A stretch of DNA of 64,000 nucleotides from Escherichia coli (GCF_030384885.1 NZ_CP128613.1), one strand, 5' to 3'. Counted from the first letter of the stretch, positions 5,646 through 21,957 are shown. Numbers and translations are program-made. The notes: generated by a model not told the origin, from the letters alone.

Positions 5646-5853
5646 GTTGCACTCCCTCACATTTTTTGTGGTTGCACCTTTCAAAAATGTTAACTGCCGC
5701 AGAGAAAAAGTCTGAGTTATTTTTTTAATCCCTGTCATATCGATTTCTTTTATTAACATTTCATTCATTTTTAAGCTTGCTACGCAGGTCACATTTAACA
5801 TAGTTGCACAAAGTTGCAACATCATGGATATTTCACGATAACGTTAAGTTGCA
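5646..5853. promoter_or_regulatory. put control region with five GTTGCA PutA operator motifs
   Basis: GTTGCA at 5646-5651, 5671-5676, 5803-5808, 5813-5818, 5848-5853 in the putP-putA divergent intergenic region. Confidence 0.6.
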
Positions 5854-5879
5854 CCTTTCAGAACAACAGGAGTAATGGC

Positions 5880-8800
5880 ATGGGAACCACCACCATGGGG
5901 GTTAAGCTGGACGACGCGACGCGTGAACGCATTAAGTCTGCCGCGACACGTATCGATCGCACACCGCACTGGTTAATTAAGCAGGCGATTTTTTCTTATC
6001 TTGAACAACTGGAAAACAGCGATACTCTGCCGGAGCTACCTGCGCTGCTTTCTGGCGCGGCCAATGAGAGCGATGAAGTACCGAATCCGGCAGAGGAACC
6101 ACACCAGCCATTCCTCGACTTTGCCGAGCAAATTTTGCCACAGTCGGTTTCCCGTGCGGCTATCACCGCCGCCTATCGCCGCCCGGAAACCGAAGCGGTT
6201 TCTATGCTGCTGGAACAAGCTCGCCTGCCGCAGCCGGTTGCTGAACAGGCGCATAAACTGGCGTATCAACTGGCCGATAAACTGCGTAATCAAAAAAATG
6301 CCAGTGGTCGCGCAGGCATGGTTCAGGGATTATTGCAGGAGTTTTCGCTGTCATCGCAGGAAGGCGTGGCGCTGATGTGTCTGGCGGAAGCACTATTGCG
6401 TATTCCCGACAAAGCCACCCGTGATGCGTTAATACGCGACAAAATCAGCAACGGTAACTGGCAGTCACATATTGGTCGTAGCCCGTCGCTGTTTGTTAAT
6501 GCCGCCACCTGGGGGCTTCTCTTTACCGGCAAACTGGTTTCTACCCATAACGAAGCCAGCCTCTCCCGTTCGCTGAATCGCATTATCGGTAAGAGTGGCG
6601 AACCGCTAATCCGCAAAGGTGTGGATATGGCGATGCGTCTGATGGGCGAGCAGTTCGTCACTGGTGAAACCATCGCGGAAGCGTTAGCCAATGCCCGCAA
6701 GCTGGAAGAGAAAGGTTTCCGTTACTCCTACGATATGCTGGGCGAAGCCGCACTGACCGCAGCGGACGCGCAGGCATATATGGTTTCCTATCAGCAGGCG
6801 ATTCACGCTATTGGTAAAGCCTCCAATGGTCGTGGCATCTATGAAGGTCCAGGCATTTCAATCAAGCTGTCGGCGCTGCATCCGCGCTACAGCCGCGCCC
6901 AGTACGATCGGTTAATGGAAGAGCTTTACCCGCGTCTGAAATCATTAACCTTGCTGGCGCGTCAGTACGATATTGGTATTAACATTGATGCCGAAGAGGC
7001 CGATCGTCTGGAGATCTCCCTCGATCTGTTGGAAAAGCTTTGTTTCGAGCCTGAACTGGCAGGCTGGAACGGCATCGGTTTTGTTATTCAGGCTTATCAA
7101 AAACGCTGCCCGCTGGTGATCGATTACCTGATTGATCTCGCCACCCGCAGCCGTCGTCGTCTGATGATTCGCCTGGTGAAAGGCGCGTACTGGGATAGTG
7201 AAATCAAACGTGCGCAAATGGACGGCCTTGAAGGTTATCCGGTTTATACCCGCAAGGTGTATACCGATGTTTCTTATCTCGCTTGTGCGAAAAAGCTGCT
7301 GGCGGTGCCAAATCTCATTTACCCGCAGTTTGCAACGCACAACGCCCACACGCTGGCGGCGATTTATCAACTGGCAGGTCAAAACTACTATCCGGGTCAG
7401 TACGAGTTCCAGTGCCTGCATGGTATGGGCGAGCCACTGTATGAGCAGGTCACCGGGAAAGTTGCCGACGGCAAACTTAACCGTCCGTGTCGTATTTATG
7501 CTCCGGTCGGTACCCATGAAACACTGCTGGCATATCTGGTGCGTCGCCTGCTGGAAAACGGTGCTAACACCTCGTTTGTTAACCGTATTGCTGATACCTC
7601 TTTGCCACTGGATGAACTGGTTGCCGATCCAGTCACTGCAGTAGAAAAACTGGCGCAACAGGAAGGGCAAACTGGATTACCCCATCCGAAAATTCCCCTG
7701 CCGCGCGATCTTTACGGTCACGGGCGCGACAACTCGGCAGGGCTGGATCTCGCCAATGAACACCGACTGGCCTCGCTCTCCTCAGCCCTGCTCAACAGTG
7801 CACTGCAAAAATGGCAGGCCTTGCCAATGCTGGAACAACCGGTCGCGGCTGGTGAAATGTCACCCGTTATCAACCCGGCGGAACCGAAAGATATTGTGGG
7901 CTATGTGCGTGAAGCCACGCCACGTGAAGTAGAACAGGCGCTGGAAAGTGCAGTTAATAACGCGCCAATCTGGTTTGCCACGCCTCCGGCCGAACGCGCG
8001 GCGATTTTGCATCGCGCTGCCGTACTGATGGAAAGTCAGATGCAGCAACTGATTGGTATTCTGGTACGTGAGGCCGGAAAAACCTTCAGTAACGCCATTG
8101 CCGAAGTGCGTGAAGCCGTCGATTTTCTCCACTACTACGCGGGACAGGTGCGGGATGATTTCGCTAACGAAACCCACCGTCCATTAGGGCCTGTGGTGTG
8201 TATCAGCCCGTGGAATTTCCCGCTGGCGATTTTCACCGGGCAAATCGCTGCCGCACTGGCGGCAGGTAACAGCGTACTGGCAAAACCGGCAGAACAAACG
8301 CCGCTGATTGCCGCACAAGGGATTGCCATTTTGCTGGAAGCGGGTGTACCGCCAGGCGTGGTGCAGTTGTTGCCCGGTCAGGGTGAAACCGTAGGCGCGC
8401 AACTGACGGGTGATGATCGCGTGCGCGGGGTGATGTTTACCGGATCAACCGAAGTCGCTACGTTACTGCAACGCAATATCGCCAGCCGCCTGGACGCTCA
8501 GGGTCGCCCAATTCCACTCATTGCGGAAACCGGCGGCATGAACGCGATGATTGTCGATTCTTCAGCACTGACCGAACAAGTCGTAATAGATGTGCTGGCC
8601 TCGGCCTTCGACAGTGCGGGTCAGCGTTGTTCGGCACTGCGCGTGCTGTGCCTGCAAGATGAGATTGCCGACCACACGTTGAAAATGCTGCGCGGCGCAA
8701 TGGCCGAATGCCGGATGGGTAATCCGGGTCGCCTGACCACCGATATCGGTCCGGTGATTGATGGCGAAGCGAAAGCCAATATCGAGCGCCATATTCAGAC

Positions 8801-16861: not shown

Positions 16862-17476
<615 letters not shown>

Positions 17477-17496
17477 TCTTCAACAGGAGGATACGC

Positions 17497-17724
17497 ATGC
17501 CAACTCAAGAAGCGAAAGCTCATCACGTCGGTGAATGGGCATCTCTGCGCAATACGTCGCCGGAAATAGCCGAGGCCATTTTCGAAGTCGCCGGGTACGA
17601 CGAAAAAATGGCGGAAAAGATTTGGGAAGAAGGTAGCGATGAAGTGTTAGTCAAAGCCTTTGCTAAGACCGATAAAGATTCGCTTTTTTGGGGCGAACAG
17701 ACCATCGAACGTAAAAACGTTTAA
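17497..17724 (+). CDS. yccJ: Small protein YccJ
   Basis: 75 aa ORF 20 bp downstream of wrbA. Confidence 0.9.
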
Positions 17725-17732
17725 TCCTGAAC

Positions 17733-17759
17733 CTCCCCCGTAGTGAACGGGGGAGTTTT
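17733..17759. terminator. Intrinsic terminator hairpin after yccJ
   Basis: ctcccccg-tagtgaa-cgggggag followed by TTTTC. Confidence 0.7.
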
Positions 17760-18259
17760 CGATTATTCATTGACCAACGTCTCATGTCCTGTTATTACTG
17801 TGAGATATTCAATCACGTTATCAAATAAAAAAATCGATATCATTGCGGTAAGCTTGTTATTGATTATAAATATGGGTAATAAGCGATATCCAGCATGAAT
17901 TTGATTGTACAGGGTATTTCCTATATAGCCATTGGTTAAATCTTGAAGATAAGATACCTCCGGCTGAAAAATCCATCCCGGCAATGAAGGATGTGATATT
18001 TTCGTAATTCTCTTGCAGAATAAACAACCCTGGATACGCTCTGAATACAAGGAAATTTTCCAATAAATTATTTATTCATCAATACTCCCCGGCGAGGATC
18101 ATCAAAATATCTCATTATCTTTTAAAACTGCCCAGCCCGTTATAACGGACGTTATCTGGCGCACGCTGAAGTGGGCATGATACTCACTTTCATTAAAATG
18201 CTCGACATGATTTGCTAATCGCTTAGCTAGATAATTGACGTTCAGTCTGTGCCAAATTT

Positions 18260-18619
18260 TTAGCGAAAAATAGCAAATTTAAGCCGGGAATTTATCAAAG
18301 CATCCTCATTTACTTCACCATGAACAATAAAGTCACGCATAAACTGCAGGTGTTTAATTAATAAAATCCATTCACTTTCAGTAAGATAGTTTTTCCCACG
18401 CAGATTATAATACAGAGATTTGATTAATGGGATCTTCTGCTTATGGCGCTTTGACCGCGCTGAGCACAATATTTGTTCTATCAGGCCAAGCGTCCCTTTC
18501 TGACGCAACCAGCACCGGAGTTCAGACTGCGCGCTAATGCCGCGAGCCACCGACAAATGTATTTGGGTAAGCAATGCGTATAAACCTAATAAAAACGCGT
18601 CGTGATAATACCGCTTCAT
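18260..18619 (-). CDS. Hypothetical basic protein, 119 aa, second gene of the inserted cassette
   Basis: ORF with GAGGTG RBS a few nt before the ATG, 12 bp after the upstream ORF stop; K+R-rich (net charge about +10); no family recognised. Confidence 0.55.
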   Translation of the reverse strand: MKRYYHDAFLLGLYALLTQIHLSVARGISAQSELRCWLRQKGTLGLIEQILCSARSKRHKQKIPLIKSLYYNLRGKNYLTESEWILLIKHLQFMRDFIVHGEVNEDALINSRLKFAIFR

Positions 18620-18631
18620 TACCCACCTCTG

Positions 18632-18970
18632 TTATCGTAATTTTTTAAACAAATAATCATATAAAATTTCGGCAATGAATTCTGCATGTTCACGTCGCAC
18701 AATGACATTCATAACGTAATATTGCGCAGCAATTTCATTGATAAAATGTTCAGGCAGTATGAATACGCGTGCATAAGCCGAGTATATTTCCAGTATTTCA
18801 TTTGAGATGTTTTCAAGATCAACGCAATAATTTGTCACATCATAAAAAAGATTAGCGTATTTTTTATTAATTATGCTAAGGCATATAAATGGGGCATTTA
18901 ATTTTTCACACAATTGCCAGTGCGTTCTTTCATTTTCTCCCTTCCATGTATACTTCATTTTGTCAGCCAT
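18632..18970 (-). CDS. Hypothetical protein, first gene of the inserted cassette (112 aa from ATG 18970; 108 aa from ATG 18958; 122 aa from GTG 19000)
   Basis: ORF in roughly 30-35% GC DNA; start codon ambiguous; no family recognised. Confidence 0.5.
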   Translation of the reverse strand: MADKMKYTWKGENERTHWQLCEKLNAPFICLSIINKKYANLFYDVTNYCVDLENISNEILEIYSAYARVFILPEHFINEIAAQYYVMNVIVRREHAEFIAEILYDYLFKKLR

Positions 18971-19105
18971 CCTTTGATTTACGCGTCTGAAGTTTACCAC
19001 TGTGTCTGGGGTAAACCATGCGTTCTATGGTAAAAATTATACGAGATGTGGCGCTGCGTAATATTCTGCTCCCTCAATATATTTCTGGTGAATATGTTCC
19101 AGGTT

Positions 19106-19138
19106 AATTGGGAAGATCTGCATGTGATCTTCCCAATT
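19106..19138. repeat. Perfect 13 bp inverted repeat with 7 nt loop
   Basis: aattgggaagatc-tgcatgt-gatcttcccaatt, between agp and the cassette. Confidence 0.6.
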
Positions 19139-19167
19139 TTATGACTACAAAATGTCAATAGCCGGGT

Positions 19168-20409
19168 TTATTTCACCGCTTCATTCAACACGCTATCAAA
19201 CTTATCCATTGGGCAGAAACCATCAGCGTCTATCGGGCAGCCGGTTAATTCCAGCGTCACGCGCTGAGCCGGAGCCTGCAACGTTAACGCATCAGCATTA
19301 CGCAACTGTTCCGCACTCTGGTACACATATTCAATTTTCATCAAATCGCGATTAGCTTTGCTGTTATGCCAACGCTGGAAAACGATTTTGCCGCCAATCG
19401 GCGTGCGTTCGTTCTGGTCATGCAACTGATACGGTTTGAAATCCAGTGCCGTTAACAGAGAGGCAATGTTTGAGTCGTGCCCCACCAGCACCGTGATTTT
19501 CGGTGCACTGGCGCGATCTGTCACCAGCGCTTTGTCGATATAACTGACCAGTGGTTTCGCAACATTGCGCGCCACTTCCGGTGAGGTAAACAGGCTATCC
19601 TGGTAACCGTTTTTCAGCTTCGACAACACTTTCCACTGTTGGTCAGATTTGATTTCTCCCCACGCCACCTGATCCATCGGGAAACCTTCGTAGTATTGCA
19701 AAGTAAACGCATCTACCAGCGAGTTGCCGACTTTCAGCGGCCCGGAAACGCCCGGTTCTTGTTGATACTTCGCGCTAAAGGTGTTTTTGCCATCTACAAG
19801 CGAACACTGTTGCTTCTCTTTACAGGCAGGAGAATCTTTATAGTTAACGATTTTTTCCAGTAGCTTGTAGCTGTCGGTAAGCTGGAGTTTGCCGAGCTCT
19901 TTCTCCATTGCCGCCACCGCCTGTTCACTGAATGCGGCGGAATCATCGGTGATCACCGGGTTAAAGGTTGGGTCCATGGTGCCCATTTTTTCCTGGTGGT
20001 GGACTGGAATGTCACACCCAGGGAATGCGCCAGTAATAAAGAACTGCGCGGTTGCGACGGTACGTTGCAGGCTGTTGGCATAGGCATAAACGGTGTCCGG
20101 CGGCGGGCATTCCCCCGAATTCACCATCCCCTGCTCTGCCAGCCACTCACGCATATAGTGGCCCATATACACTTCCAGCACACCGCCTTTGGTGGTGAGC
20201 TGCCCACCGGGGACGTCCCATTCTGGCCATTTATTCGGTGTGGATTGTTCCAGCACACTGCCATTGTTCGCCAGCGGCGCACGTAAGTTATGGCGGCTCA
20301 TTATGAGCACTTGCTGCAACTGATAGCCTTCCGGTACGGTTTGTGCCTGAGCATTTGAAGCGAGTAAAACTATCCCTGCCACAGCTGCGGCGATTAGCGT
20401 TTTGTTCAT
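19168..20409 (-). CDS. agp: Periplasmic glucose-1-phosphatase Agp
   Basis: 413 aa from [10 protein letters not shown]; histidine acid phosphatase motif RHNLRAP. Confidence 0.95.
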
Positions 20410-20703: not shown

Positions 20704-21957
20704 TTAGATGGCATAACGATTTAAATAGTCCAGTTGCGCTTTCATTTCCTTATGGTTTAACTGGTATGACTGAGCAAAAAGTTCAGTAGGGAGGTAAACG
20801 TCATAATGATTGCCAGTATTTATTAAATAACCATACTCAAGATCTTCATCCGTTGAAAAGGATTCACTTCCCAAGGAGATTGATCCCACATTACAGGCAA
20901 CAATAAACAATGAACAAATGCTATCTGAAAGCACAGCAAGGAAATTCTTCACCGCTTTAACCTTTTCCGGAGAGTCGGTATTTAAAACAAGCGAACCCTT
21001 GTTATCATTAAATATAAACTCGGGTAAATGCAATATGCATCTTTCGTCATTCAAGCAACTACCAATGAATTCTTTTTTAAACTTAATAAAATTCGACGCT
21101 AAAGAATTACCCATATCCTGAATTTGGTTGTCAGAATGCAGATCAACGCCAAATAATGTCTTAATATCTTCCCTGAGATTAAAGAATGCTGCATCAACAA
21201 AAGACTCAATCACTTGTTTATCAACAATTTTAATAAATTCGTCGTATACTTCTTTTTGCGTCTTTTGACTGCCAAGCGCCCATGAATAATCAACGTGTTT
21301 TATAACCAGGATGGCTCTTAACAGACAATATCCATCGCCATCTACAGGCGCGTATTTTAATTTATGTGCTTGATTAACTTCACTCTGAATAAAAGATATA
21401 CCAGACAAATCAATACCAGTAGCTGAATCATATATTCCCGGCGCATTTATCCGTTTTGGCTGGACATTCGTAATTTCATCATCATCAAAGCAATACTCAG
21501 AAAAAACATCATTACACTCATTTAAGATATCAACATATGCTATAAATTTATACCAACAGCTACTTTTAAAGCCTGCAATAGCCTGTGAAAACATACCCGG
21601 CAAGGATATATTAACAAGCTCTCTTTCTTGAAAATATTGTATAGTATAGGTAATGCCTCCTGAATCCCCTGAATAAGTGTTTGTATCATGAGTACGTAAT
21701 GTTTTCATAAATGAAGATAAATCATTATCATTTTGCATTTCCTCTAATTCTGTTTCTAGTGATTCACACACCAGGCATGAAATATTTTCTTCTTTCCGCA
21801 TGATTTCATTGTACAACCGCATAAAACACTCTAGTTTTTGTTCAAAAAGCGTGATTGAACATTTTTGATTTTCTTCGCGCCTGGTTTTTATATCGGCCCA
21901 GGCTGTTTTCAAATAATTATTAGCACTGCAACTTACTCCATGTATATTACTACCCAT
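20704..21957 (-). CDS. yccE: Uncharacterized protein YccE
   Basis: 417 aa ORF in AT-rich DNA; recalled as YccE. Confidence 0.8.
   Translation of the reverse strand: MGSNIHGVSCSANNYLKTAWADIKTRREENQKCSITLFEQKLECFMRLYNEIMRKEENISCLVCESLETELEEMQNDNDLSSFMKTLRTHDTNTYSGDSGGITYTIQYFQERELVNISLPGMFSQAIAGFKSSCWYKFIAYVDILNECNDVFSEYCFDDDEITNVQPKRINAPGIYDSATGIDLSGISFIQSEVNQAHKLKYAPVDGDGYCLLRAILVIKHVDYSWALGSQKTQKEVYDEFIKIVDKQVIESFVDAAFFNLREDIKTLFGVDLHSDNQIQDMGNSLASNFIKFKKEFIGSCLNDERCILHLPEFIFNDNKGSLVLNTDSPEKVKAVKNFLAVLSDSICSLFIVACNVGSISLGSESFSTDEDLEYGYLINTGNHYDVYLPTELFAQSYQLNHKEMKAQLDYLNRYAI

Follow-up and report, generated by a model that had tools for sequence, protein, structure and literature searches.

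The DNA analysed here is a 64,000-nucleotide stretch of Escherichia coli (GCF_030384885.1, NZ_CP128613.1; the whole stretch is referred to below as the window), in which a 1,407-bp AT-rich islet with three tandem small genes, designated A, B and C in the order from agp, separates agp from yccJ. The best explanation for the islet is an array of three orphan immunity genes that lacks toxins and is directed against polymorphic toxins of the Rhs/type VI secretion system (T6SS) kind, located downstream of agp at a junction of the core genome, a reading to which we assign a probability of about 0.75. In the window only gene A is intact, while gene B lacks its C-terminal third and gene C is inactivated, leaving at most one immunity specificity of the array.

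Genes A and B were identified by the neighbourhoods of their distant homologues, which adjoin the C-termini of Rhs toxins, and not by matches to family models. The position directly after the Rhs toxin domain is the defining site of the cognate immunity gene (Poole et al. 2011, PMC3150448). Homologues of A (loci L027, L028 and L018) and of B (L021, L024-26 and L029) were all co-oriented with, and immediately downstream of, the end of an Rhs toxin domain. Furthermore, the immunity family tracked the toxin-domain family: the three domains linked to B were homologous to one another, and the three linked to A were identical in type.

For the A family, an orphan Rhs C-terminal (CT) open reading frame (ORF) of Kosakonia sp. 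S29 (L027, 4119-4430), starting with MNWIDPLGL, overlapped the A homologue by 4 bp. The gene order in E. coli JNE120442 (L028, 2711-7306) was VgrG, a DcrB-related protein, a 1,531-aa Rhs protein, WP_286356113, and, 3 bp further on, the A homologue WP_083575851 with 52% identity to gene A (E 2e-38), and the same arrangement was present in two other genomes. This Rhs protein ended in the same 94-aa toxin domain as the Kosakonia ORF, while a metagenomic contig (L018) opened with the last nine residues of the toxin (HVTDYKIKD) directly followed by an A homologue, the toxin domain being one and the same at all three loci. The domain (RKCSSSRKP...HVTDYKIKD) had no match in Pfam and appears to be an uncharacterised toxin domain, with the A family as the putative cognate immunity partner of the Rhs toxin that carries it at its C-terminus. 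Separately, thi-box-like sequences (thiamine pyrophosphate riboswitch, CTGAGA...ACCTGATCTGGATAAT) were seen by eye downstream of A homologues in L019 (~680-740) and L020 (~775-835).

A profile search with the B family against 1.84 billion representative proteins resulted in 13 relatives with 23-35% identity, which have two motifs in common, LSIxRG close to the N-terminus and ADxVEHFNQS close to the C-terminus. Two of the relatives, P0016 (CP019986.1, L021) and P0017 (L024-L026), started at or overlapped the stop codon of a complete PAAR-DUF6531-RHS protein. DUF2169 was encoded upstream of these Rhs proteins, which is a T6SS context. Another B homologue, with 30% identity to gene B (E 2e-20), was present in 24 E. 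coli genomes, CREC-544 (L029) among them, and overlapped the end of an orphan Rhs fragment by 4 bp. The B-linked Rhs proteins had a PxxxxDPxGL boundary followed by mutually homologous toxin domains of 115-125 aa with the common pattern RHxTS...GVHVEVEPFGDP...YVEFD...NVGPRNTA, one of which matched Pfam Tox-ART-HYD1 (independent E-value 5e-4) and, more weakly, TreTu_C. Judging from this similarity on the toxin side, proteins of the B family are candidate cognate immunity partners for Rhs toxins whose domain is Tox-ART-HYD1-like (ADP-ribosyltransferase-type). At the locus of P0016 the Rhs gene and the B homologue were followed, at 5676-8795, by a series of orphan modules. Among these were an Rhs fragment with a Scabin-like/Pertussis-S1 ADP-ribosyltransferase domain, a fragment of Tox-HNH-EHHH type and several small ORFs without annotation, and an integrase fragment came after them.

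Each small cytoplasmic product of such an array would neutralise, by binding, one family of the C-terminal Rhs toxin domains that a T6SS-armed neighbour injects, and the cell would be protected without having a toxin of its own. Gene A would act against the unclassified 94-aa Rhs domain and gene B against a Tox-ART-HYD1-like one. The layout of the islet, its rarity, the state of its genes, the neighbourhoods of the homologues and the signature of selection are direct observations, from which we infer the neutralising activity, the specificity and the expression of the islet products.

The array is flanked by agp and yccJ and there is no toxin gene in it or next to it. An ORF with an Rhs core, a CT domain or a PxxxxDPxGL boundary was not found in 17761-19167, nor did a tblastn search with the A-linked toxin reveal a toxin remnant in the region upstream of A. 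These results concern also a different origin of the same genes, namely that a complete rhs/T6SS effector locus had once been present at agp-yccJ and that its self-immunity genes were left over after the toxin parts had been deleted, in place of an immunity-only array under selection for protection. Orphan CT/immunity modules do often occur in series at Rhs loci (L021, L027, L029), the islet is decaying and a 200-bp non-coding stretch is present between agp and A. However, the spacers in the intact alleles, with 12 bp separating A from B and 6 bp separating B from C, have no space for CT fragments, traces of an Rhs core or CT were absent upstream of A and between the genes, none of the haplotypes from three species contained a piece of a toxin, and purifying selection lasted over species-level divergence, all of which makes such a remnant unlikely.

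The layout of a small upstream gene followed after 12 bp by a larger one also resembles a type II toxin-antitoxin (TA) module in decay, with A as the antitoxin and B as the toxin now lost; inactivation of the larger gene, with A always kept, is the usual pattern of TA decay, and B contains the string RDFIVH, which corresponds to a HEPN-like Rx4H motif. This string was present only in the Escherichia copies and was not conserved in the alignment of the B family, and Pfam gave no HEPN match, so the HEPN RNase assignment for B was rejected. Moreover, the A-family and B-family homologues occurred singly, each without the other and each at the immunity position after an Rhs toxin. A metagenomic haplotype (L030; Logan SRR7799232, 3617-4315) had the order agp, A, C, yccJ with a 57-bp gap between A and C and no B called, which suggests that single genes of the array were lost independently. 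The AlphaFold2 model of B (pLDDT 79.5, pTM 0.79) was an all-alpha bundle matching generic helical bundles only, with neither a nuclease-type match nor any other enzyme fold recognised in the structure search; it fits a binding protein and is also compatible with catalysis. Searches of Pfam, NCBIfam, PADLOC and PHROGs with all window ORFs and their intact homologues yielded nothing beyond a chance-level DNase_II match (E 0.08), the sole family-library match for A, and thus no TA, HEPN or defence family; none of the ORFs and intact homologues had a PADLOC match even at E<=1, and PDB sequence searches with A and B gave nothing significant. A TA module is, therefore, extremely improbable. The initial annotation of this region, made from the sequence of the window, had suggested defence or addiction cargo, which stands in the broad sense of defence, as immunity against interbacterial toxins, and falls both for TA and for phage defence.

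The same annotation overlooked the pseudogene state of two of the three islet genes. Gene B is annotated as an ORF of 119 aa (18260-18619), in comparison with 172-177 aa in the intact alleles; relative to all of these it has a 1-bp deletion after position 18280, beyond which the C-terminal part persists out of frame as far as the former stop codon (18102-18104). The conserved C-terminal third, including the ADxVEHFNQS motif, is thereby missing from the product, and a separate, independent frameshift was found in gene B of strain N3. The original start codon of gene C is at 18077-18079 and its stop at 17764-17766. A 2-bp deletion turned its beginning into ATG AAT AAA TAA, and a TAA nonsense codon at 17857-17859 and more indels followed. 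Intact versions of gene C (100-105 aa) were limited to strain N3 and the three assemblies L010-L012, all of them E. coli. From its position in the array, size and composition we infer that gene C was the third orphan immunity gene of the islet. A search among the small ORFs at Rhs loci L021-L027 gave no homologues of A or C.

Gene A was intact in every haplotype examined. Its pairwise ratio of nonsynonymous to synonymous divergence (dN/dS) across haplotypes was 0.09-0.26, compared to 0.17-0.30 for gene B (pairs at informative distances) and 0.29-0.31 for gene C (between intact alleles). The total range of 0.09-0.31 indicates that all three are real genes that have been under purifying selection, which points to a past function.

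The features of the region are listed in Table 1. In the window yccJ and agp are 1,443 bp apart, compared with only 37 bp in K-12 W3110 and two other E. coli, the W3110 spacer having the hairpin as its sole content. The segment is absent from K-12. The islet has a GC content of 37.3%, which drops to 31.5-35% over gene A (200-nt windows); the window as a whole has 51.4%, and wrbA-yccJ and agp have ~52%. In these respects the extra ~1.4 kb of AT-rich DNA beyond the yccJ terminator, its difference from K-12 and its GC drop relative to the flanks are as initially described. The left boundary is the yccJ-side hairpin with G+C-rich arms CTCCCCCG-loop-CGGGGGAG followed by TTTTC (terminator scan). E. 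coli without the islet also keep this hairpin, although its loop is another one. In the agp-proximal 200-bp non-coding stretch, 30 nt downstream of the agp stop, a perfect inverted repeat is present and, according to a comparison of the 3'-ends, kept in all islet haplotypes; it is not followed by a T-run on the agp strand and may form the hairpin at the end of the agp transcript. An Rfam scan of 17400-19400 gave zero family matches.

Table 1. Features of the yccJ-agp region (positions in the window).
Feature	Position	Strand	Basis
Islet, 1,407 bp, AT-rich, three tandem small genes	17761..19167	-, as agp	
Gene A, 108 aa, WP_000878101.1, intact	18632..18958	-	annotation and homologues
Gene B, pseudogene	18102..18619	-	frameshift comparison with intact alleles
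Gene C, pseudogene	17764..18079	-	comparison with intact alleles
yccJ	17497-17724	+	
yccJ-side terminator hairpin (stem-loop 17733-17755, then TTTTC)	17733..17760	none	terminator scan and spacer comparison
Perfect 13-bp inverted repeat, 7-nt loop	19106..19138	none	arms AATTGGGAAGATC / GATCTTCCCAATT
agp	19168-20409	-	

The segment was found by blastn (search sensitivity roughly 65-70%) in 5 of the 5,426 complete E. coli genomes, each time between yccJ and agp: in 2013C-4282 (99.9% identity), MFDS1022581 and MFDS1019527 (both 99.7%), N96 (97.7%) and N3 (94.4%), the identity range thus being 94.4-99.9%. Its absence from 99.9% of the complete genomes bears out the accessory status assumed initially, and inspection of the boundaries and the interior again revealed no terminal inverted repeats, IS (insertion sequence) ends, target-site duplication, integrase or transposase. 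No paper on an agp/yccJ/wrbA island was found in the literature.

What is probably wrong is the polarity of the event, that is, the view of the segment as an insertion acquired recently. The history of the islet was compared within Escherichia, including E. coli, E. fergusonii, E. albertii and three islet-free alleles. The islet was also present between agp and yccJ in E. fergusonii (L003/L004), in E. albertii (L007/L008) and in the divergent E. coli assemblies L010-L012. In the E. albertii loci a secondary IS3-family element (orfA/orfB, frameshift-type) was located at the yccJ terminator hairpin (intergenic ~1400-2900), where gene C would be expected. The synonymous divergence (dS) of the window-type allele from E. 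fergusonii, E. albertii and the E. coli assembly L010 was, respectively, 0.17, 0.24 and 0.38 for gene A, 0.02 (0.019), 0.40 and 0.31 for gene B, with N96 standing in for the broken window copy, and 0.25, 0.52 and 0.03 for wrbA, for which the value against K-12 was 0.035. At the species level the dS of the islet is therefore of the same order as that of the flanking core gene wrbA. All three islet-free alleles had one 37-bp spacer type with the hairpin loop CTTC[T/A]CG, and two of them carried a window-like agp, while most of the islet-bearing alleles, including the window, had the loop TAG[T/C]GAA.

A recent horizontal insertion of anti-phage defence or other cargo by some mobile element would be consistent with the low GC content (37%), the small number of carriers (5 of 5,426) and the lack of family annotation for A and B. 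Nevertheless, it is very unlikely in view of the identical location of the islet in E. albertii, in E. fergusonii and in three E. coli haplotypes that are divergent, with dS in the species-level range, the missing inverted repeats, target-site duplication, integrase and transposase, the negative PADLOC and PHROG results and the single spacer type of the islet-free alleles examined. Because this spacer type is common to the islet-free alleles, a single ancient deletion is favoured: the islet is probably an ancestral Escherichia segment, judging from the sequence comparison, which was deleted once in the distant past, the deletion having spread through most of E. coli. The deletion endpoints match TTATTCA, at the stop codon of C, and TTATTTCA, at that of agp, and the two may represent a microhomology.

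The haplotype of the window is an unusual one. The wrbA and yccJ genes of the window are those of an ordinary E. coli (dS 0.02-0.035 against K-12), and the divergent part extends from the yccJ stop across the islet and into agp, for which dS against K-12 is 0.28. An agp at least 95% identical to the window allele was present in 18 of 5,417 genomes, and parts of the islet were 99-100% identical to E. fergusonii. The window haplotype may be ancient and have been retained, or it may have come by homologous recombination from another, divergent lineage of Escherichia. A more far-reaching and rather doubtful scenario is that agp and the islet form a trans-species polymorphism older than the split of the Escherichia species, in which an immunity-only operon and a divergent agp are kept at very low frequency in E. 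coli by fluctuating T6SS/Rhs selection with occasional exchange between E. fergusonii and E. coli. A and B would then represent two new unannotated immunity families, one of them directed against an uncharacterised 94-aa Rhs toxin. Beyond agp, the yccE gene (20704-21957, minus strand) is AT-rich, with 34.8% GC, and highly variable, with 80-83% nucleotide identity between islet-bearing E. coli. It scores 708 bits, under the NCBIfam YccE cutoff of 812, and contains PVDGDGYCLLRAI, by eye similar to an OTU-type cysteine-protease motif, with no match in a PDB sequence search.

Several points weigh against the array of orphan immunity genes as the explanation. Gene A is only ~50% identical to the toxin-adjacent immunity proteins, and immunity is usually allele-specific; the true cognate toxin of the window gene A lies outside the sampled set. 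The AlphaFold2 model of A (pLDDT 54) was too poor and was kept out of the fold search. On the toxin side of gene B, the Tox-ART-HYD1 match is weak (21 bits). For gene C no homologues were found outside the islet, including the small ORFs of Rhs loci and a tblastn search of plasmids. The promoter scan of the cassette found no convincing promoter, with fewer matches than in shuffled sequence, and AT-rich DNA such as that of the islet is often silenced by H-NS. Finally, inactivation has occurred repeatedly and independently, affecting B in the window and in N3, and C in the window, N96, the MFDS strains and E. fergusonii, which means that selection on these genes is currently weak.

One of the closest known systems is that of the cognate immunity genes rhsI of Enterobacteriaceae (Poole et al. 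2011, PMC3150448). The A and B homologues are likewise small ORFs at or overlapping the Rhs stop after a PxxxxDPxGL-bounded toxin; in contrast to rhsI, the window is without an rhs gene or CT fragment. With 30-52% identity to their toxin-linked homologues, the window copies may differ from them in specificity, and neither family is present in Pfam or NCBIfam. Orphan immunity as a strategy has been described in Vibrio cholerae (PMC5361080), Serratia (Rhs; PMC10539506) and gut Bacteroidales (PMC12247911), where the arrays are thought to protect against non-kin attackers. The islet shares with them the lack of a cognate effector, the tandem organisation, the AT-richness and the variability between strains. 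However, the known orphan arrays are usually located beside T6SS/effector loci or on mobile elements, while the islet stands alone between two housekeeping genes, at a site common to three Escherichia species, nearly extinct in E. coli and partly pseudogenised. The Rhs-Tox-ART-HYD1 effectors of Salmonella pathogenicity island 6 (SPI-6) are also followed by immunity ORFs without a known domain (PMC10469887). The weak matches of the B-partner toxins to Tox-ART-HYD1 and TreTu_C make the likeness to these effectors and to Tre-Tu/Tri-Tu one of the toxin side. According to Zhang et al. 2012 (PMC3482391), the partner of Tox-ART-HYD1 is Imm-My6CBD, an alpha+beta protein, in contrast to the all-alpha structure predicted for B.

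The islet does not represent a new kind of system and is a fairly ordinary accessory relic. Its analysis flagged agp-yccE as a deeply polymorphic region of E. coli, and it offers a small and clean case of orphan immunity genes residing in the core genome, away from a secretion-system locus, in the process of being lost. Two families of "hypothetical proteins" without a Pfam or NCBIfam model (WP_000878101 and WP_000833428 types) obtain a probable role, and each of them is tied to a specific Rhs toxin domain, which gives testable toxin/immunity pairs, one of them with an unclassified 94-aa toxin.
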